Shown here piece by piece: positions 2,396 through 43,889 of a DNA stretch of 64,000 nt; the first letter of the stretch is position 1, and the number at the start of each line of letters is the position of its first letter. The notes under the pieces were generated by a model that worked only from the letters and a program-made list of their open reading frames with translations, searched no databases and was not told the origin of the DNA. The stretch lies in the NCBI GenBank assembly GCA_009881065.1, contig WXFE01000017.1:6234-70233 (forward strand), written 5' to 3'. A program made the translations under genes and the position numbers. Source of the DNA: Bacteroidales bacterium. Its GTDB lineage: Bacteria; Bacteroidota; Bacteroidia; Bacteroidales; VadinHA17.

Positions 2396-3550
2396 TTAAC
2401 CTGCCACGGGCGACTTGAATCCTTTGGCCCTCACCCTGACAGTTACGGTGTAATAGGCATATTCGTCATTCACATCATCGAACTTGTAGGTAAGCCTGTT
2501 TCCTGACCTGCGGGCCATCTCCAGCAGACCCATATAGCCGGTGGAAACCTTTGACATATCCTGTCCCATCAGTGCCACCTTGAGCAGTTTCTTAAGCCCC
2601 TCCTCATCATACCTGTTAACCATGTCAAGCTTCTGTGTAAGGTAATCAGTGTCGCTTTTCCTGATCAGGTTTCCCGAGGTGATTATGAATGATGCCGGTG
2701 TTCTCCGTATCATGGCGAGGGGGATGCCGAAGTGCTTCTCAGCCTCAAAGCCCGGGCTGTGCTGTGCCACATTCTGAAGCAGTTCAATGAGTGTGGCAAA
2801 AACGCGCTTGTGGAGATTCTGTTCCAGTTCGGCCTCGCGCATTGTTGTCTCGCTGAAGTTCAGCAGTTCCTTGCTGATGGCATGGGTCATGGGCCCTGCC
2901 CAGATAAAAAAGATATTGTTTGACTTCATCATCCGCTCCATCTGCATTATCCTTTTAGAGTCAAACGTGCTCTCGCCCTGGTCCTGTTCGGGCGTTGTAA
3001 TCCCCTTACCGCCGGAATCAATGGTCTTGCTGAGAATGAAATAGGAATACCTGTCATCTATCGGGTAGAAATCATAGTCAAGCCTGTTTCCCGTCTTGCG
3101 GGCCATCTCCATCAGGCCCAGTCCTGCCCCGCCCTTCTTGCCGATTTTGGTATCCTGGAGCATGGTTCTGTAGACCTCCCGTATCTTGTCAGGATCAAGA
3201 TTGTTGATCTTCTGAAGGTTTTTTCTGAGCCCCCTGACCTCGCTCTTTTTGAGCGCATTGCCCGTGCTGACGGTGTAGCCGTCGGGGGTTTTGCTGTAAA
3301 CAACCAGGGAGGTGATGTCCTCACTCCGGGAGATGCCATGCCTGGTTATATTCTGGAGGTTTTCAAGGACGAACATGAAGAGCCGTTTGCGTCCCAGCAT
3401 GCTGAAGTCAGAAAACTCCATCTCACGTTCCAGCAGGGTCAGAAGGCTGACGGAGTTATCTCCTGTCACCTCTCCCCTGTAGGCGAACATCAGGTGTTCA
3501 TCTGAAAGCTTCTTCCGTAATTTCTTAATGAGTTTCATACAATCCGACAA
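2396..3550 (-). CDS. Tandem (two-domain) SiaB-like / DUF6272-type GHKL protein kinase (anti-sigma-factor-like)
   Basis: 384 aa with two homologous halves. Each half has an N-terminal ...F.Y.GE/GP...LL...E and a ...R.F..L.E.LQN..(R)H motif, plus a G-box: KKGGAGLGLMEMARKTGNRLDYDF in one and STGYMGLLEMARRSGNRLTYKF in the other. Confidence 0.6.
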   Translation of the reverse strand: MSDCMKLIKKLRKKLSDEHLMFAYRGEVTGDNSVSLLTLLEREMEFSDFSMLGRKRLFMFVLENLQNITRHGISRSEDITSLVVYSKTPDGYTVSTGNALKKSEVRGLRKNLQKINNLDPDKIREVYRTMLQDTKIGKKGGAGLGLMEMARKTGNRLDYDFYPIDDRYSYFILSKTIDSGGKGITTPEQDQGESTFDSKRIMQMERMMKSNNIFFIWAGPMTHAISKELLNFSETTMREAELEQNLHKRVFATLIELLQNVAQHSPGFEAEKHFGIPLAMIRRTPASFIITSGNLIRKSDTDYLTQKLDMVNRYDEEGLKKLLKVALMGQDMSKVSTGYMGLLEMARRSGNRLTYKFDDVNDEYAYYTVTVRVRAKGFKSPVAG

Positions 3551-3622: not shown

Positions 3623-5161
3623 TCAGCCTGCCCAGCCCTCACGGTCGAGGTTTCTGTAATTAATGGCTTCGGAAAGGTGGTCAGGCCTGATGGTTTCTGA
3701 TCGGTCGAGGTCAGCAATTGTACGGGATACCTTAAGAATTCGTTCAAAGGCGCGGGCGGAGAGTCCGCGTTTCTCCATCGCTGCCCGGAGGAGCCTTCCT
3801 CCGGCGTCATCTATGTGACAGTGCCTGCGTATCAGGGCCGGGGTCATCTGTGCATTGGAATGTATGCCATCATTGCCTGCAAATCGTTCCGACTGTAATT
3901 TGCGTGCCTCCGTCACCCGTTCCCTTATCATTGATGAACTCTCTGCCTTAGCAGTGACTGAAAGATTTTGATAGTCAACCGGCACCACTTCAATGTGAAT
4001 GTCTATCCTGTCAAGGAGGGGCCCTGAGATACGGCTCATGTATCTCTGCACCATTCCGGGGGCGCATGTGCATTCCCTCACCGGATGGTTATGAAATCCG
4101 CATGGACATGGATTCATGGAAGCGATGAGCATCACCGAGGCCGGAAAATTACAACTCTGCCTGGCACGGGCTATGGTAATAACCCTGTCTTCCAGCGGTT
4201 GCCGTAAGACTTCCAGGACACTTCTTTTGAACTCCGGCAACTCATCGAGGAAGAGCACTCCGTTATGTGCCAGGCTGATCTCCCCCGGCTGTGGCACGGA
4301 GCCACCGCCTACAAGTGATATGTCAGACGATGTATGATGAGGACTGCGGAAGGGTCTGCAGGTCATCAGCGGGATATGATTGTCTGTCTTTCCTGCCACT
4401 GAATGTATCCTTGTTGTCTCCAGCGCCTCATCGAGGGTCAGAGGCGGCAGAATGCCGGGCAGCCTGCGGGCAAGCATCGTCTTCCCGGAACCGGGCGGAC
4501 CTACCATGATTGCATTATGGTTCCCGGCCACTGCCACCTCCAGGGCGCGCTTGACATTCTCCTGGCCCTTCACATCTGCAAAGTCATTGTCATAGACATT
4601 TCCCTCGCGACTGAAAAGCTCCCTTATGTTGACTGTGACCGGCGCAGGAGTGATGTCACCCCTGAGGTAACTGAGCACCTCGCCAAGGGTATTGACACCG
4701 TAGATGGCCAATCCCTCAACCACAGCTGCTTCAGGAGCGTTGAGGGCAGGTACCATCATGCTGCTGAAGCCCTCCCCGCGTGCCTTCAGTGCCATGGGAA
4801 GCACTCCCCTGACAGGCCGTACCGCCCCGTCAAGCGAAAGCTCACCGGTGATCAGCATGCCATCAAGCCGGCTGCCGCTGACCATCTCCGAGGCAACAAG
4901 GATGCCCACGGCCAGGGGCAGATCATAGGAAGAGCCTTCTTTCCTGATATCTGCCGGTGCCATATTGATCACCACCTGCCTGCCCGGCCACCTGAGACCT
5001 ACAGCCCGCAGGGCCGACTCAATCCGCTGCTGGCTCTCCTTGACGGCAGTGTCCGGCAAACCGACAAGCATATAGCGGACACCGCGGGTGACATCCACCT
5101 CAATGGTAACCGGGGCAGCCTCAATACCGGAAACGGCAGCGCTGAAGGTCTTGACCAGCAT
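3623..5161 (-). CDS. yifB: YifB/ComM family Mg-chelatase-like ATPase
   Basis: 512 aa with an N-terminal Lon-protease-like domain, Walker A GPPGSGKTMLA, the cysteine cluster NPCPCG, and a C-terminal ChlI-like domain. Confidence 0.9.
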   Translation of the reverse strand: MLVKTFSAAVSGIEAAPVTIEVDVTRGVRYMLVGLPDTAVKESQQRIESALRAVGLRWPGRQVVINMAPADIRKEGSSYDLPLAVGILVASEMVSGSRLDGMLITGELSLDGAVRPVRGVLPMALKARGEGFSSMMVPALNAPEAAVVEGLAIYGVNTLGEVLSYLRGDITPAPVTVNIRELFSREGNVYDNDFADVKGQENVKRALEVAVAGNHNAIMVGPPGSGKTMLARRLPGILPPLTLDEALETTRIHSVAGKTDNHIPLMTCRPFRSPHHTSSDISLVGGGSVPQPGEISLAHNGVLFLDELPEFKRSVLEVLRQPLEDRVITIARARQSCNFPASVMLIASMNPCPCGFHNHPVRECTCAPGMVQRYMSRISGPLLDRIDIHIEVVPVDYQNLSVTAKAESSSMIRERVTEARKLQSERFAGNDGIHSNAQMTPALIRRHCHIDDAGGRLLRAAMEKRGLSARAFERILKVSRTIADLDRSETIRPDHLSEAINYRNLDREGWAG

Positions 5162-5263: not shown

Positions 5264-5500
5264 CCGCAGGGTGTCAGGTGGCAGGATGGCCAGGCTTTCT
5301 GTTCTGCATGTCCCTGGCGCGGTTTTGTATCAACCGCCGCAGGCCGCCAGGGTGGGCAGCCGTTCAGTTTGCCAGATTCCTGAAGGAGGATTGTATCAAC
5401 CGCCGCAGGCCGCCAGGGTGGGCTGCCGTCAGAATGGCCAAATTTACCGCTCTTCACATCCCTGGCGGAGTTTTGCACCTGCCGCCCAAAGCTGCAAGGG
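5264..5500. repeat. Interleaved GC-rich repeat modules (A/B) with mutually complementary 8-mers
   Basis: A 38/39-nt near-identical direct repeat occurs at 5325-5363 and 5391-5429 (period 66). A module A (CA..TCCCTGGCG..GTTTTG.A.C) occurs at 5307-5340 and 5455-5486. CCCTGGCG in A is complementary to CGCCAGGG in B (5345-5352, 5411-5418). Confidence 0.85.
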
Positions 5501-5625: not shown

Positions 5626-6259
5626 ATGGCAAAGGCGGTAGTAACTGACAGCCAGACAAGGCTTAAGATATTCAGGGCAGCCTCGGATATTTTTGAAGAG
5701 AAGGGCTATGAAGGCGCCAGGATGCAGGAAATTGCAGACAGGGCCGGTATTAACAAGGCTTTGCTGCACTATTACTTCCGCAGCAAGGATCAGCTCTTTA
5801 TGTCAGTATTCCAGGTGCTTCTGAAGAAGATGTTTGAAAGAATCATGACAATAGTTACTGCCGACATCACTTTCAGGGAAAAGATAAGACAGTTTATTGA
5901 TCATCACATTGACTTCCTGAACAAAAATCCCAAACTGCCTATTTCCTTCTTAACGAAGTCGCAAGGAATCCTTCCGTTGCTGCGGAACTGAAGGAGACAT
6001 TCCCGTACGAAGAGATACTTGACCTGATATACGAAAAGCATGCAAAGGAACTCAAGGGTTACGGCATAAAAAAAGTGATTTGCCGCAGTTGCTGATCACC
6101 ATTGTTTCAATGTCGGTATTCCCCTATGCGGCTCGCCACATGATAGCCTTCATGATGCCCCGGATGCGTGAAAACAGAAGGTTTAAAGCATTCATGGATG
6201 AACGGAAGGAATTTGCCACCGACTTCATCCTCAACTCCCTGAAACAAAGGAAAAAATGA
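5626..6259 (+). pseudogene. TetR/AcrR-family regulator (CecR/YbiH-like position) interrupted by two -1 frameshifts
   Basis: The N-terminal HTH (RMQEIADRAGINKALLHYYFRSKDQLF) is in frame 1 to about 5940. Translation continues as FLLNEVARNPSVAAELKETFPYEEILDLIYEKHAKELKGYGIKK in frame 3, then SDLPQLLITIVSMSVFPYAARHMIAFMMPR...LNSLKQRKK in frame 2. The second shift is inside the A7 run at 6068-6074. The final TGA overlaps the tolC-like ATG (ATGA 6256-6259). Confidence 0.8.
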
Positions 6260-21634: not shown

Positions 21635-22780
21635 TCAATAAAGCTGCATCTCATACTGCACCCCCTCAACCGGGTACTCTCCTATTATCAGGGAATCCTG
21701 TGAAAATGAAAGTGCTCCTACAATCCCCAGTCCGTTGGTAATGTTGGAATAGACCGGCACGGGTTCAGCAAACGGATTGTCCGCTGTCCGGTTATAAGCC
21801 GAATATGACTGAAGGTACAGATAAAGGTCCCTGGTTATTGAGTTCAACCTGAAGAATGCGCGGAGGAACTCGTAATGCTCAGTACTGAAATGAAATCCGT
21901 TGTACTCAAGATTGAGAGTGTACTCTTTGCCGGGGATAAGATCATCAGTGAAGATATAATACTCATTCTGAGGGTAAATATCCAGGAGGTCATCCTCCTT
22001 CGTTGGTGAAATGATCGGATCGCCGAGGGCACCGTAGCTGAGGTCATTGATGCGGACATAAACCTTTTGTTCAGGATCATAAGGCTGGCCGTGGTCACCA
22101 TAGTAGTTCCCCCTTGTTGACGGTGCAGTTAACCTGTAGTAGTTTTTCCCGTCAGCCGGATCGCGGAAGCGCAGTTTCACGGTCAGCCGCCTGTTGCCGT
22201 AACCGATATCACTGTATGTGGTGTCAGCCAACTCAACAGCCACCGGGGCTGGCAGCTCTGTCTCTCCGTAAGCCGCCGGGTATCCCGGAATCATAACTTC
22301 AATACGGTAGACATGCCCGTATTCCGGTTTATTTGTTTCAGAGGTGTACTTCGAGTAGGGACTCACAGGAGCGTTCTCATCAGCCGGGTCGGAACCCTGG
22401 TATGCAAGGGTTTCCAAAAGCTTACCGTCACGGTAAACCCGTACTGTAGCATCCCTGATCTGCCTTGGCTTCCATGGTATCTGGAAGACAGAATGGCTCT
22501 CCGATATCGTTACCGAAATAAACCTGTCCGGTTCAAGAAGGGCATAGATGACTGCCTTTGGCTCGGTCTCAGGGCCCTTATAGTCAATCACCGTTTCGCA
22601 ACCGGCAAGCATCAGCACTACAAGCATAAGGGCAACCAGAGCGACTATTCCACCCGTGCTCTTCGCGGCACCAGGGGTGACTGGTTTCCTTGTGGTCTTC
22701 ACGGCAGCCAGAAGAACTGGTTCCCCCGGAATCTTCATGGCTGTCAGGGTAACTCTTTTCCTTATATTCTTCATGGCCAT
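21635..22780 (-). CDS. DUF4249-family lipoprotein (partner of the upstream TonB-dependent receptor) with a repeat-extended N-terminus
   Basis: Lipobox LMLAGC about 60 aa into the ORF and a C-terminal ...NITNGLGIVGALS motif typical of DUF4249. The first ATG (22780) overlaps the receptor stop (TGATG). The true start is uncertain because of the 36-bp repeats. Confidence 0.7.
   Translation of the reverse strand: MAMKNIRKRVTLTAMKIPGEPVLLAAVKTTRKPVTPGAAKSTGGIVALVALMLVVLMLAGCETVIDYKGPETEPKAVIYALLEPDRFISVTISESHSVFQIPWKPRQIRDATVRVYRDGKLLETLAYQGSDPADENAPVSPYSKYTSETNKPEYGHVYRIEVMIPGYPAAYGETELPAPVAVELADTTYSDIGYGNRRLTVKLRFRDPADGKNYYRLTAPSTRGNYYGDHGQPYDPEQKVYVRINDLSYGALGDPIISPTKEDDLLDIYPQNEYYIFTDDLIPGKEYTLNLEYNGFHFSTEHYEFLRAFFRLNSITRDLYLYLQSYSAYNRTADNPFAEPVPVYSNITNGLGIVGALSFSQDSLIIGEYPVEGVQYEMQLY
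22631..22780. repeat. In-frame 36-bp tandem repeat x4 (+6 bp) covering the 5' end of the DUF4249 gene
   Basis: Units at 22631-22666, 22667-22702, 22703-22738 and 22739-22774, all of the form GGCA.CCAG...ACTGGTT.CC......TCTTCAy. The translated 12-aa units are MAMKNIRKRVTLT / AMKIPGEPVLLA / AVKTTRKPVTPG / AAKSTGGIVALV. Confidence 0.85.
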
Positions 22781-25239
22781 CAGAACTTGAATGAATATGA
22801 TACGGACGGTATTATCGGAAAGACAGTCACCTTTCTCAGTTCAGGCTTGGTGTAATAGATCTTTTCTCCCGGATTATCCGGATCGGGTTCTTCCACCCAT
22901 TCTTCGCCCCAGTAGACAAAGAACGGGTTGAGCCGGTTATAGGCATTGTATACCGAGAAGCTCCATGTGCTAATTCCGTTTTTCCTCTGTCTGTGAAGGT
23001 TTACCCCCAGATCGAGTCTGTGGTAAGATGGTAAACGATAGTTGTTGCGCCCGGGAAAATCAGTAATCATAGTATACCGTGAATCATGTACAAAGAGATT
23101 ATCACCAGGATACTGTGAAGCTCCCAGCGTGGCAGCGTTCCCTGTTCCGTATACCCATACCAGTCCGGCATCAACCTTGTCATTGAACTTATATGTCAGC
23201 GCGAGGCTCACGTCATGCCTTCGGTCATACTTCGCCGGGAAAGTGTTCCCATAGTTCAGATTCTCGAATTTGCGCCGGGTCCATGAAAGAGTATATCCTA
23301 TCCATCCCGTCAGCTTTCCGTAGTTCTTTTCAATCATTATCTCTGATCCGTAGGCCCATCCCCTGCCCTTCTCCACCTTCGACTCCCATCCTTCACCCGT
23401 ACCTCCGAAGGAGGCTCCCTCCTTGTACTCAATAAGGTTATCCATGGTCTTGTAGAATGCTTCCACCGATACCTCAAGGTCTCCGGGTATCAGGAATCCT
23501 GATCCCAGTGCCACCTGATGCGAGACAGGTGGCTCATACCGCTTTGTAACCGGCAGCCAGAGGTCCGTCGGAAGGCTTACGGCAGAAGTGGTAAGCAGGT
23601 GTACGAACTGCCCCATCTTACTATATGACAGCTTGAACGACAGGTCATTGGTGGCTATGTACCGGAGCGAGAGCCGCGGCTGAAAGACGAAATAGCTTGT
23701 GTCCTGAACGTTGAAGAGTGACAGGCGAACGCCGGCATTCATCTTCAGCTTCGGGGTGAGGTCGATGTTGTCCTCGGCATACATAATGAACTCACCGGCT
23801 CTCACCTTCATGTCTCCCACAACGGTATCAAGCCCGGTTTCGCCAATTATGCCCGAATTAAACCTGTAAGTGGTGATGCCGGGCTTGAAGTGATGGTATG
23901 TGTAACCGGCGCCAAACTTCACGGAATGGTTTGGCGACAGGTAGTAGTCGAAGTCTGTCTTTGCACCAACATCCTCAATCCCGGAGAAATACTTGAAGTA
24001 ATCCACTCCCTTTGCTTTTGAATTGAGATCCTCAACAGACGATTCAATTGTCACATCGAAATCATATTTGCTGAAGGTAAGGGTAGTATTACTGAACAAC
24101 TTATTGGTAATCAGATAATTCCATCTGAGGGCAGTGATGAAGTTACCCCAACCCAGTCCGAAATCATCTTTGTATTCAAACCTTTTTTCTCCGTCCTCAC
24201 TCTGGTAACTTGACCTGGAGGTGTGTCTCATGTATGCCCTGTCTCGTCCAAGGTACGAGCTCAGATAGAGTCTGCTCTTCTCCGAAAACTTGTGGTTGAT
24301 CTTGGCATTGAGATCGTAGAAATAATAACCTGCGTTTGTCTTGTCATTCTGATTCTCGTTGAATTTCATGATAAACGGCCTGGTAAGGATATCATAATAT
24401 GTACGTCGACCGGAGATGACAAATGAAGTCTTGTCTTTTATTATCGGCCCCTCAAGTGACAGTTTGGATGATATCAGCCCTACGGAGACATTTCCATGGA
24501 ACTCCTTCTCGTTGCCCTCTTTCATGCGTATGTCAACCACTGATGACAGGCGTTCACCGAACCGGGCCGGGAATCCGCCTTTGTAAAGCTGGACTGATTT
24601 GACGGCATCGGGATTGAATACCGACATGAATCCGAAGAGGTGGTTGGCATTGTAGACAGGTACTCCATCGAGGAGAAAAAGGTTCTGGTCAGGGCCGCCT
24701 CCACGTACATAGATGCCGGTGGATCCTTCGGTGCCCGACTGCACACCCGGGAGCAGTTGTATCACTTTCAGCACATCGGCTTCGCCGAAGATCACCGGCA
24801 ACTTGAGAAATTTCTCCACCGGGATGTCTATCATGCTCATCTGGGTGCTTTCGATCTTCGCCCTCCGGCCGGAGGCCGTAACTGTAACGGCAGCTATCTC
24901 GCTTGATAACATAACCAGGCTGAAGTTGATAACCGTGTCACGGGATAGTTGTACGACAAGGGTGTCAGGCCTGTAGCCCAGGTATGATACGATCAGTTCA
25001 GCCTTCCCGGCAGGCAGTGGCAGGCTGTAGAATCCATAGTTGTTAGTGGTGGTACCGGCGAATGAGGCTCTTTCATAAACGGTGGCGTCGATCATTCGTT
25101 CGCCGCTGCCAGCATCGGTGACGAAGCCGCTGACGGTGATCCTTGCAGTTGCGGCAGATGAGCCGGTTATACTCCGCTGCGCCTCAAGAGACAAGCTCAG
25201 GGCGAGTGCTGTAAAAACGAGGAAGAGCAGTATGCGCAT
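22780..25239 (-). CDS. TonB-dependent receptor with N-terminal carboxypeptidase-regulatory-like domain
   Basis: 819 aa with a signal peptide, a CarboxypepD_reg-like segment (ITVSGFVTDAGSGERMIDATVYE), a plug domain, and a beta-barrel ending in ...SYSFKF. Confidence 0.9.
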   Translation of the reverse strand: MRILLFLVFTALALSLSLEAQRSITGSSAATARITVSGFVTDAGSGERMIDATVYERASFAGTTTNNYGFYSLPLPAGKAELIVSYLGYRPDTLVVQLSRDTVINFSLVMLSSEIAAVTVTASGRRAKIESTQMSMIDIPVEKFLKLPVIFGEADVLKVIQLLPGVQSGTEGSTGIYVRGGGPDQNLFLLDGVPVYNANHLFGFMSVFNPDAVKSVQLYKGGFPARFGERLSSVVDIRMKEGNEKEFHGNVSVGLISSKLSLEGPIIKDKTSFVISGRRTYYDILTRPFIMKFNENQNDKTNAGYYFYDLNAKINHKFSEKSRLYLSSYLGRDRAYMRHTSRSSYQSEDGEKRFEYKDDFGLGWGNFITALRWNYLITNKLFSNTTLTFSKYDFDVTIESSVEDLNSKAKGVDYFKYFSGIEDVGAKTDFDYYLSPNHSVKFGAGYTYHHFKPGITTYRFNSGIIGETGLDTVVGDMKVRAGEFIMYAEDNIDLTPKLKMNAGVRLSLFNVQDTSYFVFQPRLSLRYIATNDLSFKLSYSKMGQFVHLLTTSAVSLPTDLWLPVTKRYEPPVSHQVALGSGFLIPGDLEVSVEAFYKTMDNLIEYKEGASFGGTGEGWESKVEKGRGWAYGSEIMIEKNYGKLTGWIGYTLSWTRRKFENLNYGNTFPAKYDRRHDVSLALTYKFNDKVDAGLVWVYGTGNAATLGASQYPGDNLFVHDSRYTMITDFPGRNNYRLPSYHRLDLGVNLHRQRKNGISTWSFSVYNAYNRLNPFFVYWGEEWVEEPDPDNPGEKIYYTKPELRKVTVFPIIPSVSYSFKF

Positions 25240-25244
25240 ACATT

Positions 25245-25655
25245 TCAGAAGCCGGTTGTCTCTTTCAGGAATTTCCGGACGGCCTGTTTCTCCTCGAACT
25301 CAAGCAACCTCGTCGGGAGCCGGATGATACGACCTGTTTTCATCACGATACGGACAAAGTTTTCGTCGGTCATAATCTCATCGATCTCATGTATCGGCAG
25401 GATTATCCTCATGGGTTTAGTGTACCATTTTATTGTCAGCACACCTTTTTCGACTGTCAGCCTGTTAACGAGTGTTCCGAAGTTCAGGCTGAGGAATGCC
25501 AGCCCCAGCAGGAGCAGGGCTAAAATCTGGATCCAGAATGACCACTCATTTTTATCACCGGTAATGATTATTATGATAACCATGATCAGGCAGACGATCC
25601 CCAGCGAGCGGTATATCCGTGCATAGAGTGAGTTCCTGAGTACAAGCTGTTTCAT
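25245..25655 (-). CDS. 2-TM membrane protein with C-terminal PH-like (bPH-type) domain, paralog A
   Basis: 136 aa with two hydrophobic helices, a beta-rich segment and a conserved C-terminal helix AVRKFLKETTGF. Its stop is 5 nt from the receptor start. Confidence 0.6.
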   Translation of the reverse strand: MKQLVLRNSLYARIYRSLGIVCLIMVIIIIITGDKNEWSFWIQILALLLLGLAFLSLNFGTLVNRLTVEKGVLTIKWYTKPMRIILPIHEIDEIMTDENFVRIVMKTGRIIRLPTRLLEFEEKQAVRKFLKETTGF

Positions 25656-25804: not shown

Positions 25805-26215
25805 CTACAGTCCCGTGTTCTCCTTCAGGAATTTGCGTGCTGCCCGGCGTTTGTCGGCATCCATGTGTTTCACGTGAAGGCGGATGTTACTGCCGTCTTT
25901 CATGGTTATCCGGATGTATCTCTCATCCTCCGTGATCTCAGCGATCTGGTCAATGGGGAGACGTTTTTTAAAGATTTTTGTATTCCATCTGATTGTCAGT
26001 ATTCCACGGTCAGCGGTGATCTGGTTGATGATGGTGCCGAAGTTCAGGGTCAGAAAGAAGATGGCAACCAGGATAAAAACCACAGCCAGCATCCAGAAGA
26101 TGGCTGTTTTGGGACTTTGAATGAAGAGTTGTAACCCGACACTGAGCAGTGTCAGTACTCCCAGAAACCGGAAGAGATATTCCTGAACCTTGTCTCTAAG
26201 CACCAGTTGATTCAT
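25805..26215 (-). CDS. 2-TM membrane protein with C-terminal PH-like domain, paralog B
   Basis: 136 aa. It aligns without gaps to paralog A at about 55/136 identical residues by hand. Shared blocks include M.QLVLR, LNFGT, G.LTI.W.TK, LPI..I.EI..DE, IRL and ARKFLKE.TG. Confidence 0.6.
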   Translation of the reverse strand: MNQLVLRDKVQEYLFRFLGVLTLLSVGLQLFIQSPKTAIFWMLAVVFILVAIFFLTLNFGTIINQITADRGILTIRWNTKIFKKRLPIDQIAEITEDERYIRITMKDGSNIRLHVKHMDADKRRAARKFLKENTGL

Positions 26216-33262: not shown

Positions 33263-34176
33263 TGAGCATCTGGAACGAAATAAAGAGCTCATTCAGACGT
33301 GGCTCCACCCTGACGCGGCTGATGTACATTAACGGCGCCATCTTTCTGTTTATCAAGATCATTGAAGTAATAGGGGTCCTTACCTCCAATCCCGGCCTGG
33401 CAACGGCAGTAATATCGAACCTGGCAGTTCCGGCATCTACCTCCGCCCTGGTCTTCAAGCCATGGACCCCGGTCACCTACATGTTTACCCACCAGGGATT
33501 CATTCACCTGCTCTTTAACCTTCTGTGGCTCTATTGGTTCGGTAAAATTTTCCTGGCATACCTCGATCAGCGGAAGCTGGTCTCAGTTTATATAATGGGA
33601 GGTCTTGCCGGGGCGCTTCTTTACATCATTGTCTTCAATCTCTTCCCGGCCTTCGCGTCAGCGGTAAATATCTCAATCGCGCTGGGCGCCTCAGCCTCGG
33701 TAATGGCGCTGGTAATAGCCACGGCTGTCTACCTTCCCGACCTCGAGCTGCACCTCCTGTTTATCGGAAGGGTGAAACTTAAATACCTGGCACTGATAAC
33801 CTTCCTTATCACCTCAGTATTTGATTTTTCGGTTAATACCGGTGGCAAGATCGCCCATATCGGCGGTGCGGTGATGGGATTTGCATACGGGCAGGGTTTG
33901 AGAAATGGCAGGGATTTTGGAGCATGGCTAAGCAGGATACTCGACTTCTTTGTCAATCTGTTCAGACCGGGGAAAGGGCTCAGGGTGAAATACAAGAGGG
34001 CCGGAGCATCCTTCAATACAAAAAAGACGAAAACCGATTACGATTACAACTCCGCAAAAGCCGAAAGGCAGAAGGAGATAGACCATATACTCGACAAAAT
34101 TTCTAAGGGAGGTTATGACAGTCTCACGAAGGAAGAAAAAACGATTCTTTTCAGCGAGAGCCAGAAAAAAGGATAG
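33262..34176 (+). CDS. Rhomboid family protein (second copy, with C-terminal soluble extension)
   Basis: Motifs HQGFIHLLFNL, GASASVMA and AHIGGAVMG. There is a 1-nt overlap with the upstream rhomboid stop. Confidence 0.8.
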   Translation: MSIWNEIKSSFRRGSTLTRLMYINGAIFLFIKIIEVIGVLTSNPGLATAVISNLAVPASTSALVFKPWTPVTYMFTHQGFIHLLFNLLWLYWFGKIFLAYLDQRKLVSVYIMGGLAGALLYIIVFNLFPAFASAVNISIALGASASVMALVIATAVYLPDLELHLLFIGRVKLKYLALITFLITSVFDFSVNTGGKIAHIGGAVMGFAYGQGLRNGRDFGAWLSRILDFFVNLFRPGKGLRVKYKRAGASFNTKKTKTDYDYNSAKAERQKEIDHILDKISKGGYDSLTKEEKTILFSESQKKG

Positions 34177-35302
34177 CGGTATCAGGCGCTTCACGCGAAA
34201 CACACTGCTGGCGGTCAACCTTTTACTGGTTATCCTCCTGGTGCTGGCATACATTTCAATCTATATCAATCCTGCAACGATAGCATTCCCTGCCCTTTTC
34301 GGGCTTGCATACCCCTATATCGCTGCCATGAACGTTATCATGGTCATCGTCTGGATCCTCTTCAGGAAATGGTATGCGCTGCTGTCTGCAATTGCACTTG
34401 CGGCAGGATTCGGGTATATCCACAACTTCATCAGGTTCACCAACCATGGGAAGGAGGAGCATCATGACCTTAAGTTACTAAGTTACAACGTACGTCTGTT
34501 CAATAATTATGAGTCGGACGAGAAGAACACCCACAGCAGGGTGCTTCAGCTTCTGAGGAAGGAGAATCCGGGGATTATCTGCCTGCAGGAGTATTATGTC
34601 AGGGGTGACCCGGCAGTTGGTGAGAGAAAACTTAAGGAGGGCGTGGGAGGAAACAGATACACCCACTTCAAACTGATAAAGAGCGGAACGGCCAGCCGGT
34701 ACGGTATTGCTACCATATCACGCTATCCGATCATTTACAGGGGCGATGTCATTCATCCGGGGTCATCATCACTGACCATCTTCAGCGATATCGTTGTTGA
34801 CACTGACACTTTCAGGGTTTACAACAACCACCTGCAGTCGTTTCGCCTGCGGCGCATGGAAAGGAATCTGCTCAGCGAGCTTGCCGGTGAGGAGAGAGGG
34901 CGCTCCATGGATAACATCTCAGATATTTACAAGAGCCTGATGCAGGGATTTGCCAGTCGTGCCCTGCAGGTTGACCGTGTAAGGAGACACATGGAGTTGT
35001 CGCCCTACCCGGTGATTGTTGCAGGCGATTTCAATGACACGCCGGTTTCATATACATACCGCGTTATGCGCCGCGGATTGAACGATGCATTTGTGGAGGC
35101 GGGTTACGGGGCCGGGTTTACCTATCGCGGCAAGTACCCGCCCAACCGGATAGACTATATCATCTACGGCGAAGGAATTGAGTGTACTGATTTTGACATT
35201 GTCAAGGTCAGGTATTCAGATCACTACCCGGTCATTGCCTATTTCAGGCGCGCTGACCGGATGGCGGTTCCAAAAGAGAAAATCTCCCGCCGGAAGCAGT
35301 AG
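34115..35302 (+). CDS. Membrane-anchored endonuclease/exonuclease/phosphatase family protein
   Basis: N-terminal TM helices followed by the EEP motifs LLSYNV, CLQE, NNHLQS, GDFNDTP and SDHYPV. Confidence 0.8.
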   Translation: MTVSRRKKKRFFSARARKKDSGIRRFTRNTLLAVNLLLVILLVLAYISIYINPATIAFPALFGLAYPYIAAMNVIMVIVWILFRKWYALLSAIALAAGFGYIHNFIRFTNHGKEEHHDLKLLSYNVRLFNNYESDEKNTHSRVLQLLRKENPGIICLQEYYVRGDPAVGERKLKEGVGGNRYTHFKLIKSGTASRYGIATISRYPIIYRGDVIHPGSSSLTIFSDIVVDTDTFRVYNNHLQSFRLRRMERNLLSELAGEERGRSMDNISDIYKSLMQGFASRALQVDRVRRHMELSPYPVIVAGDFNDTPVSYTYRVMRRGLNDAFVEAGYGAGFTYRGKYPPNRIDYIIYGEGIECTDFDIVKVRYSDHYPVIAYFRRADRMAVPKEKISRRKQ

Positions 35303-35322: not shown

Positions 35323-35520
35323 CTGAACAGAAACTTCGACAAGTCAGCTTATCTGCCAGGGGAAAGAACAGGTATCAGTTATCCACCCTGACCGGACGAA
35401 AGTTTTGACAGGTCAGCTTATCAGTAAGGGAAAAAATGAGTACCAGTCATTCTCGCTGACCGAACGGAAGTTTCGACAGGTCAGCATTCCCGCCGGAAAC
35501 AATAATTGCACTTCTTTTGC
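35323..35520. repeat. About 65-68 bp tandem repeat x3; the third copy is the 3' coding end of the PLP-enzyme gene
   Basis: Copies start at 35323, 35388 and 35456, with a shared core CTGAmC.GAmmGaAAsTTTyGACArGTCAGC(TTATC). Copy 3 encodes ...ADLSKLPFGQRE* on the minus strand. Confidence 0.8.
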
Positions 35521-36427
35521 CGCTGAACAGCTCCCTGTTGGCAAGCACCGCAGCCAGGGGGACGGCTGATGAAGGCTCCACGACGATCTTCAGCCTCGTC
35601 CACATCAGGGTCATGGCCTCTGTTATCTGCTCCTCGGTGACGGTGAGGATGTCGTCAACATTCTCTCTTATGACCGTGAATGTTCTTTCGCAGAGCGATG
35701 TAAGGAGTCCGTCTGCTATGGTGCGTGGGGGAAGTGCCGGCTGTATGACGCCTGTGCGGAGTGATCTGGCCGCATCGTCGGCCAGCAGCGGCTCGGCCCC
35801 GTAGATTTTTGCATGCGGAGCCATGTGGCGTATTGCTATGGCCGTGCCGCTGAGGAGGCCGCCGCCGCCCACCGGGGCAATGACCGCATCAGGGTCCGCT
35901 ATCTCATCAGCCAGCTCCATTGCCGCGGTCCCCTGACCGGCGATGATGTAAAAGTTATCATAGGGATGAACCATCGTGGCGCCGGTCTGTTCAATAACCT
36001 CCGCGGCGGCGGCCTCCCGTGCCGCCAGCGTGGGCTCACAGAAGGTGATCTCCGCGCCATAACCTGCCACCGCCCTCTTCTTCACCCCGGGCGCCGAGGA
36101 GGGCATCACAATATAGGCCTTCACCCCGCGCATCGCTGCCGCATGAGCGAGGGCGGCAGCATGATTGCCCGACGAGTGCGTCACCACGCCGGCGGCACAC
36201 TGGCCTTCCGTGAGATTCTGCACCGCATTGGTGGCGCCCCTGAACTTGAAGGCCCCTGTCTTCTGGAAGTTCTCACACTTGAAGAAAAGCTTCGCGCCAC
36301 TGATGGCATCAAGCTGCCTTGAGGTAAGCACCGGTGTACGATGCACATACGGCCTTATAAGCCTCAAGGCAGCCTCAATATCTTCAAACTTCGGAATGAA
36401 TGACATGACCCTCAGGCCGGCGGGCAC
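35447..36427 (-). CDS. PLP-dependent serine/threonine dehydratase family enzyme (serine-racemase-like, no ACT domain)
   Basis: PLP-lysine motif FFKCENFQKTGAFKFRGATNAV, plus SSGNHAAALA and a glycine loop PVGGGGLLSG. The start is either 36427 or ATG 36406. Confidence 0.85.
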   Translation of the reverse strand: MPAGLRVMSFIPKFEDIEAALRLIRPYVHRTPVLTSRQLDAISGAKLFFKCENFQKTGAFKFRGATNAVQNLTEGQCAAGVVTHSSGNHAAALAHAAAMRGVKAYIVMPSSAPGVKKRAVAGYGAEITFCEPTLAAREAAAAEVIEQTGATMVHPYDNFYIIAGQGTAAMELADEIADPDAVIAPVGGGGLLSGTAIAIRHMAPHAKIYGAEPLLADDAARSLRTGVIQPALPPRTIADGLLTSLCERTFTVIRENVDDILTVTEEQITEAMTLMWTRLKIVVEPSSAVPLAAVLANRELFSGKRSAIIVSGGNADLSKLPFGQRE

Positions 36428-43223: not shown

Positions 43224-43889
43224 CTATTCGGTCTTTTCTGCAGTATCTTCCTGAGCTTCAGCTGCGGGCGCTTCAGTCTCTGTCTGTGCGGGAGCTTCTG
43301 TCTCTGCCTCTGCGGGCGCTTCAGTCTCTGTCTGTGCCGAAGCCTCTCCGGCTGCATCTTCGGCAGCGCTCTCTTCAGGAGCCTCGGCTGCTTCAGCAGC
43401 TTTTGCTGCTGCCTCTGCCTCAGCGGCAAGGGCTGCCGCCCTTTTGGCGAGCTCTTCTGCCCTGGCCTCCTTGATTGCCTTTTCAGCTTCAAGTTTCTTC
43501 TTGCGCAGCTCTTCGCCCTTCTTCTCCAGGCCTGACCTCTTCAGTTCAATTTTCTCTTCCTTGCCCTTCAGCCATTCATTAAACCGGCGGTCAGCTTCTG
43601 CTTCGTCAAAAGCACCTTTTCTTACTCCTTCAAGCAGGTGCTTCTTCATCATTACTCCCTTATACTTCAGGATTGCCCTGCAGGTGTCCGTAGGTTGCGC
43701 ACCATTCTGCAGCCATTCCAGTGCCCTCTCGAAGTTGATTTCAATTGTTGCCGGGTCAGTGAGCGGATTATAAGTTCCGATCTTCTCAATGAATCTGCCA
43801 TCACGTGGCGACCTGCTATCTGCTACCACCACGTGGTAGAAGGCCTGCTTCTTGCGGCCCTTCCTAGCTAATCTGATTTTTACTGACAT
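43224..43889 (-). CDS. rpsP: 30S ribosomal protein S16 with a long acidic/alanine-rich C-terminal extension
   Basis: N-terminal [42 protein letters not shown] is canonical S16. The C-terminal approximately 130 aa are K/E/A-rich and end in TETEAPA-type repeats. Confidence 0.9.
43262..43337. repeat. 48-bp tandem duplication inside the rpsP tail
   Basis: CTGCGGGCGCTTCAGTCTCTGTCTGTGC occurs at 43262 and again at 43310. It encodes AQTETEAPA / AETEAPA units. Confidence 0.8.

Follow-up and report, generated by a model that had tools for sequence, protein, structure and literature searches.

Genes and repeat units at the locus

The window, i.e. the whole 64-kb stretch of Bacteroidales DNA analyzed here, carries a gene for a TonB-dependent receptor on its minus strand, directly followed by a gene encoding a DUF4249 lipoprotein (Table 1). 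The receptor reading frame ends with ...SYSFKF-TGA, the stop codon occupying positions 22782-22780. The receptor gene thus reaches to 22780, with the start of the lipoprotein gene at 22780 or 22774. In a comparison with Pfam, the product of the ORF 21635..22780 (minus strand) matched PF14054 over residues 63-361 (E = 6e-36; 124.8 bits against a cut-off of 28.5), which places it in the DUF4249 family. An antisense ORF (22313..22855, plus strand) had no Pfam match and was treated as spurious.

The order of receptor and DUF4249 gene was kept at all fetched related loci. The conserved synteny comprises genes for (i) a 136-aa protein, (ii) the receptor, (iii) the DUF4249 lipoprotein, (iv) a 212-aa membrane protein, (v) an HTH_34 regulator, and (vi) CreD. 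Upstream of the receptor, the window contains two tandem paralogous genes for the 136-aa membrane protein (25245-25655 and 25805-26215, minus strand). They gave only weak, sub-threshold Pfam matches (DUF6136, EbsA-like), and one or two copies of the gene were present at all related loci. In Bacteroides, DUF4249 lipoproteins are putative lids of non-SusC TonB-dependent transporters, as described for BT2173/BT2172 (bioRxiv 10.1101/2023.03.17.533168). The lipoproteins of that study have ordinary short signal peptides, and a leader repeat was not reported there.

Direct reading of the sequence revealed four tandem 36-nt units in frame at the start of the lipoprotein gene (22774..22631, minus strand), located between the stop codon of the receptor and the hydrophobic core and lipobox (LAGC) of the lipoprotein. 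On the minus strand, the order is ATGGCC, followed by the units ATGAAGAAT...GCC, ATGAAGATT...GCC, GTGAAGACC...GCC, and GCGAAGAGC...GCC, and then by CTTATGCTTGTAGTGCTGATGCTTGCCGGTTGC (encoding LMLVVLMLAGC). Pairwise identity between units was 19-24 out of 36 positions (53-67%), while the flanking 36-mers reached only 6-14 out of 36. Tandem Repeats Finder, applied to the region, did not report the array because the units are too diverged; a direct scan for period 36 was used in its place. The summed pairwise identity of 133/216 was the highest period-36 value in the whole window, compared with a maximum of 90 in 50 shuffles of the window. Similarity continues for about 9 nt further upstream (CTGATGGCC), into the receptor stop codon and the spacer, so that the array is about 4.25 units long. 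In a scan of 108 ORFs in the window, no other real gene carried an N-terminal tandem repeat. An earlier note, made from the sequence alone, had described four in-frame 36-bp copies of the start-codon region, the last of which had lost its initiator (GCG). Both observations were confirmed: the sequence is as described, with a period signal far above that of the shuffles, and unit 4 has no start codon.

Table 1. Features of the receptor-lipoprotein junction and of the repeat array.
Feature	Position in the window	Strand	Remarks
TonB-dependent receptor gene, 819-aa ORF	22780..25239	-	CarboxypepD_reg-like domain, Plug, and beta-barrel; not SusC type
Junction motif CTGATGGCC (CTGACAGCC in relatives)	22775..22783	-	receptor stop TGA and spacer; the 9-mer recurs at each unit end
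Unit 1, ATGAAGAAT...GCC, encoding MKNIRKRVTLTA	22739..22774	-	conserved first start codon; 5 nt past the receptor stop in relatives
Unit 2, ATGAAGATT...GCC, encoding MKIPGEPVLLAA	22703..22738	-	same sequence as unit 5 of the 7-unit allele (L019)
Unit 3, GTGAAGACC...GCC, encoding VKTTRKPVTPGA	22667..22702	-	last usable start codon (GTG) of the window allele
Unit 4, GCGAAGAGC...GCC, encoding AKSTGGIVALVA	22631..22666	-	no start codon; second half opens the hydrophobic core
Example peptide IPGEPVLLAAVK, expected from units 1-2 if these are translated		-	translation
Rest of the hydrophobic core and lipobox L-A-G-C (LMLVVLMLAGC)	22598..22630	-	Cys codon 22600-22598
Mature DUF4249 lipoprotein (320 aa); putatively the lid of the neighbouring receptor	21635..22597	-	Pfam PF14054

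Other repeats were noted elsewhere in the window. Seven tandem 37-nt units with a GC-rich palindromic core (TGCAATGAGATTCCTGTGCCGGCAGCGCCGGACACCC, 73% matches) occupy positions 2109-2371, between an ORF ending at 2116, of metallophosphoesterase type by our own reading of its sequence, and a minus-strand gene starting at 3550; this repeat is covered by spurious ORFs only. Three 66-nt direct repeats (5282-5495), with 70-74% identity to the reference copy and start-to-start distances of 66 and 82 nt, lie in the gap between the divergent genes 3623..5161 (minus strand) and 5626..5991 (plus strand). A 24-nt unit repeated three times in frame (43263-43337) lies within the stretch for the acidic C-terminal tail of the product of gene 43224..43889 (minus strand), which looks like ribosomal protein S16, judged by its N-terminal sequence. 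Finally, 2.2 copies of a 68-nt unit (35335-35485, 78% matches) span the ends of the ORFs 34115..35302 (plus strand) and 35447..36427 (minus strand).

Copy-number variation among orthologs

A protein search retrieved 91 homologs of the DUF4249 lipoprotein. Most were 339-346 aa long and had an ordinary lipoprotein leader of 20-23 aa, e.g. MKIIRIVNSFVA-AAMTALAIVSC. The closest relatives lengthened in steps of 12 aa (355, 367, 379, 391, and 415/418 aa). On the basis of protein and DNA sequences, these lengths correspond to 2, 3, 4, 5, and 7 units, respectively, so that orthologs with conserved synteny contained 1, 2, 3, 4, 5, or 7 units in all. The cysteine followed by E-T-V-I-D-Y was conserved in orthologs. 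In a tree of the mature protein, all multi-unit alleles fell into one Bacteroidales clade, whose sister is a lineage with one unit. The duplication thus happened a single time, before several splits at the species level. An alignment of the orthologous junctions, proposed in the earlier note as a check, gave 2-7 in-frame units throughout this clade and a single unit with a normal 22-aa signal peptide in distant orthologs. The suggestion that the in-frame duplication is of long standing was thereby supported, the duplication being clade-wide and the units of all orthologs in frame.

Copy number also differed between close strains. In L019 (GCA_035328885.1), seven units are present against four in the window, with flanks that are 99.1-99.4% identical over about 6.2 kb. 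Units 1-4 of the window correspond to units 1, 5, 6, and 7 of L019, and the three extra units of L019 are themselves diverged (25-29 out of 36 positions shared with their nearest relatives). Judging from these alignments, a 108-nt deletion between two ATGAAGA heptamers in the window lineage is the most likely event. In a second species, a 4-unit allele coexists with a 2-unit allele (two independent assemblies). The shorter allele equals the longer one minus exactly 72 nt, the flanks are 98.5-100% identical, and the breakpoint falls inside a 23-nt stretch that is identical in units 2 and 4. A third species has both 3- and 5-unit alleles, with a flank identity of 96-97%. All nine distinct alleles are in frame. 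With tandem units in the range of 10-100 nt and a copy number that differs between close strains, the array fits the description of a coding minisatellite (VNTR).

One homolog, P0002 (379 aa; two contigs, JGI/ENA), combines the leader array of the L004-type species (MKIPRIIVHPTS MKITTKIVDRIS...) with a mature part nearly identical to that of the window. Either natural recombination at the array or a chimera from co-assembly would explain this combination.

Start codons, translation, and the leader peptide

In relatives, the receptor gene ends with TTC-TGA, followed by CAGCC and then by ATGAAG; this 5-nt spacing is invariant, whatever the copy number. The first unit opened with ATG, 5 nt past the receptor stop, in every multi-unit allele seen. 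The inner units carry ATG, GTG, CTG, CCG, or GCG at this position and are polymorphic even between close relatives, e.g. within the 4-unit clade, where unit 4 has ATG or GTG and unit 3 has CCG or CTG. The earlier note had drawn attention to the most upstream ATG (22780-22778), which overlaps with the receptor stop (TGATG, 22782-22778). This overlap is real, but it arose by a lineage-specific change from ACA/ACG to ATG (L019 has ATGGTC), and the conserved start is the ATGAAG located 5 nt past the stop.

The end of the unit, CCCTGACAGCC, matches the sequence preceding the first start, TTCTGACAGCC; each junction (CTGACAGCC-ATGAAGA) therefore copies a module of stop, spacer, and start. In the one-unit relative L030, CTGAAAGCC-ATG and CTGACGGCT-GTG are found 39 nt apart, and short direct repeats of this type would be the expected substrate for a first duplication by slippage. 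In the inner units, the best-kept part is the start (RTGAAGAT), with a conservation of 0.84 vs 0.71-0.76 elsewhere, which could reflect selection on alternative starts instead of drift. Annotation pipelines choose different starts on the same DNA: some take the first ATG, others that of unit 2 or one within unit 1. This resulted in calls of 358, 367, 379, 381, and 413 aa for the same genes (P0093, P0099, P0101, P0108, P0133, and P0137 vs L003, L019, and L020).

In unit 4 of the window, a start codon is missing, and the hydrophobic core already contains the next ATG; translation must therefore cover at least units 3-4. Each of the 16 unit lineages measures exactly 36 nt, has no in-frame stop, and shows no indels other than whole units. 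The true intergenic spacer following the gene ranges from 83 to 462 nt among loci. In the earlier note, the period being a multiple of 3 was read as a sign of translation. The frame is indeed kept in all alleles, but this is weak evidence when taken alone, because copy changes of 36 nt preserve the frame automatically. The extension was also said there to have been translated and tolerated for a long time; this is better argued by the invariant first ATG as opposed to the decaying inner starts. Absence of stop codons was dropped as an argument for translation: in a neutral simulation, the upstream units were all stop-free with P of about 0.22, and one alternative frame is equally open.

The ratio pN/pS was 0.50 for the array, 0.48 for the genuine tail of the signal peptide, and 0.21 for the mature part (few substitutions in non-independent pairs). 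The value for the array is in line with a leader that is translated under loose constraint. No wobble signal was detected between units, the top-base frequency being 0.73, 0.76, and 0.79 at codon positions 1, 2, and 3, respectively; the amino-acid sequence of the units is therefore hardly constrained. Folding of the junction RNA was no better than for shuffles (z = -0.14). The only Rfam hit, Ysr283, was a sub-threshold chance match (19.8 bits vs a gathering score of 58). A scan for sigma-70 promoters and terminators yielded a few weak consensus matches (6 vs 2.4 expected), which carry no meaning in a Bacteroidales genome.

The leader contains only one true hydrophobic core; uncharged runs in the upstream units do not exceed 8 aa. 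In the window, the n-region comprises about 40 aa within a signal peptide of 60 aa and has a net charge of +8. It is thus long, as the earlier note had stated, but shorter than the 48 aa or so given there. Across alleles, the upstream units add 18-76 aa with a net charge of +4 to +15. Using a hand-made pattern for signal peptidase II substrates (a lipobox [LVI][ASTVI][GAS]C after a charged n-region and an uncharged hydrophobic core), we found all elements in place, i.e. a charged n-region, an uncharged stretch of 20 aa before the Cys, and the lipobox LAGC. The positional rule of PROSITE PS51257 expects the lipoprotein Cys within about the first 35 residues. In the window, the Cys is residue 61 when counted from the first ATG of the reading frame and residue 59 from the conserved ATG. 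It would be residue 35 only with a start at the GTG of unit 3, and it is residue 97 in the 7-unit allele. Searched alone against Pfam, the leader gave no match to ESPR (PF13018) even at E values up to 10, and only a sub-threshold chance match to Circovir2_Orf1. A comparison of the 61-aa leader with 1.84 billion representative proteins returned no hit at E ≤ 0.001, so that this leader is not known from any other family; with a short query of low complexity, the power of this search is low.

From these comparisons, we consider it probable that a coding minisatellite has arisen within the cleavable signal peptide of this lipoprotein and that the array is translated from the first ATG. In the single-copy ancestor, 36 nt encoding MK, the n-region, and the first hydrophobic residues would have been flanked by two similar strings of 9-12 nt, CTGAC(A/G)GCC-(A/G)TG. 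One of these would have run from the receptor stop through the spacer to the start codon, and codons 10-13 (..L-T-A-x) would have made up the other. Slippage or illegitimate recombination between the strings may have caused one duplication at the base of one Bacteroidales clade; this origin by microhomology was read post hoc from present-day sequences. Turnover by whole units, or by blocks of two or three units, has since led to 2-7 copies, presumably again by slippage or by unequal exchange. Initiation would take place at the first ATG, 5 nt past the receptor TGA, and would probably be coupled to termination at the receptor gene. The whole array would be read as a positively charged n-region of 18-76 aa (+4 to +15) ahead of the single hydrophobic core and the lipobox, and signal peptidase II would cut off the entire leader. 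With the whole leader removed, the mature lid lipoprotein would be the same at any copy number, and the array would therefore be tolerated. Its sequence would drift almost freely, with constraint on frame and openness only. Ribosomes may in addition start at inner ATG or GTG codons; this would do no harm, since every product would end up as the same mature protein. The array is a real, unusual length polymorphism and probably does no harm. One point against this explanation is that signal peptides of 60-96 aa with such n-regions are unusual for lipoproteins.

The main rival reading, which we regard as unlikely, takes the units as a ladder of alternative in-frame starts, so that copy number sets the amount of lid lipoprotein relative to the receptor while the mature protein stays the same. 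Every junction duplicates the start context from positions -9 to +7 (CTGACAGCC-ATG-AAG-A), and conservation within the unit peaks at its start end; high conservation at the junctions, however, is also expected where slippage breakpoints fall. ATG or GTG is still present in most inner units, yet the inner starts are decaying to CTG, CCG, and GCG, including that of the last unit in the window, while the first ATG never changes. Bacteroidia initiate without Shine-Dalgarno guidance; in Bacteroidetes, local mRNA features pick the starts, around which AUG is normally depleted (PMC6847099). Because of this depletion, the extra AUGs are likely visible to ribosomes, but ribosomes elongating from the first ATG would occlude the inner starts. 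Copy-number differences between strains also agree with a ladder. Of the two alternatives left undecided in the earlier note, a long n-region and a ladder of starts, we favour the former, with a mixture of both being possible.

The upstream units might instead be an untranslated spacer, with initiation only at the last usable codon, which is the GTG of unit 3 in the window. The remainder of the array would then be a non-coding tandem repeat separating two operon genes. Such a start would give a 35-aa leader of near-normal shape, inner starts are indeed picked by some annotation pipelines (P0133, P0137, and P0099), and neither a significant excess of stop-free units nor a wobble signal between units argues for translation. 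We nevertheless think this improbable. The first ATG and its 5-nt distance are invariant, whereas the supposed downstream starts vary (ATG/GTG) or vanish, and the 16 unit lineages changed by whole-unit indels only, as opposed to the length range of the true intergenic spacer. Moreover, a ribosome beginning at the first ATG must be tolerated regardless.

It is likewise doubtful, although conceivable from the sequences, that the array is no tolerated passenger but a selected, evolvable tuning knob. Altering how many start modules there are, or how long and how charged the leader is, would then control how fast the lid lipoprotein is initiated or processed by Sec/LspA. If true, the lid-to-barrel ratio of a TonB-dependent transporter would depend on copy number, and the array would be a new type of contingency locus that acts via signal-peptide length and leaves the mature protein unchanged.

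An assembly artefact or a chance periodicity has hardly any probability: all sequences are from short-read metagenome assemblies and the 2-unit allele is conceivably a collapse across the 23-nt identical stretch (one contig has a coverage below 1x), but the periodicity exceeds that of shuffles by far, the exact protein of the window occurs on 107 + 61 (i.e. about 170) independent contigs, the 7-unit allele was recovered on contigs from four sources (NCBI, JGI, Logan, and ENA), and the difference between 4 and 7 units has only 7 nt of junction homology. Since the units are 33-47% diverged, assemblers are unable to expand or collapse them. An assembly artefact is excluded for the allele of the window, and the concern of the earlier note that orthologs might show a single unit, and so expose an artefact, did not materialize.

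Comparison with known systems

If the whole array is translated as part of the signal peptide, as we favour, the strain-variable leaders of 46-96 aa form a natural test series for the limits of n-region length and charge in Sec/LspA processing of Bacteroidota. The array would also be a clean example of a repeat that evolves freely in a discarded part of a protein. As the unit carries a stop-spacer-start module, the locus is usable for studying start selection without Shine-Dalgarno sequences. For annotation, it illustrates a failure mode: pipelines disagree on the start, and position-based lipoprotein rules would miss the lipobox. In the literature searched on tandem repeats in bacterial signal peptides, we found no precedent, only human signal-peptide indel polymorphisms, which does not prove that there is none.

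Coding VNTRs occur in bacterial surface proteins such as the Vlp/Vsa lipoproteins of Mycoplasma and the staphylococcal Sdr/Clf proteins. As in the array described here, their units are multiples of three and measure tens of bases, their number varies among strains by slippage or unequal exchange, and the frame is kept. In those proteins, the repeats lie in the mature, exposed part and alter its size or antigenicity. In contrast, the present repeat lies wholly in the cleaved signal peptide, including the start codon and the upstream stop and spacer, and would leave the mature protein unaltered.

Phase-variable repeats in leaders include the CTCTT repeat of Neisseria opa genes and CT repeats in outer-membrane protein genes of Helicobacter. 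These share with our locus the position of the repeat tract in the leader-coding region of an outer-membrane protein gene, and their number is altered by slipped-strand mispairing. Their units, however, are homogeneous, measure 2-5 nt, and are not multiples of three, so that changes in number shift the frame and switch expression on or off. The array analyzed here is not a simple sequence repeat of a phase-variable contingency locus, given its 36-nt unit, the 53-67% identity between units, and nine alleles in frame. With the frame intact in every allele, the locus lacks the on/off switch of opa.

A third likeness is to the extended signal peptide region (ESPR, PF13018) of autotransporters and to other long signal peptides (PMC2805444), in which a long charged N-terminal extension precedes a normal n-h-c core. 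Leaders of at least 50 aa are thus workable in Gram-negative bacteria. The ESPR motif is conserved and free of repeats, and it occurs on proteins of type V secretion, which signal peptidase I cuts, whereas the extension described here is a variable repeat of the protein's own n-region, carried by a lipoprotein that would be cut by signal peptidase II.
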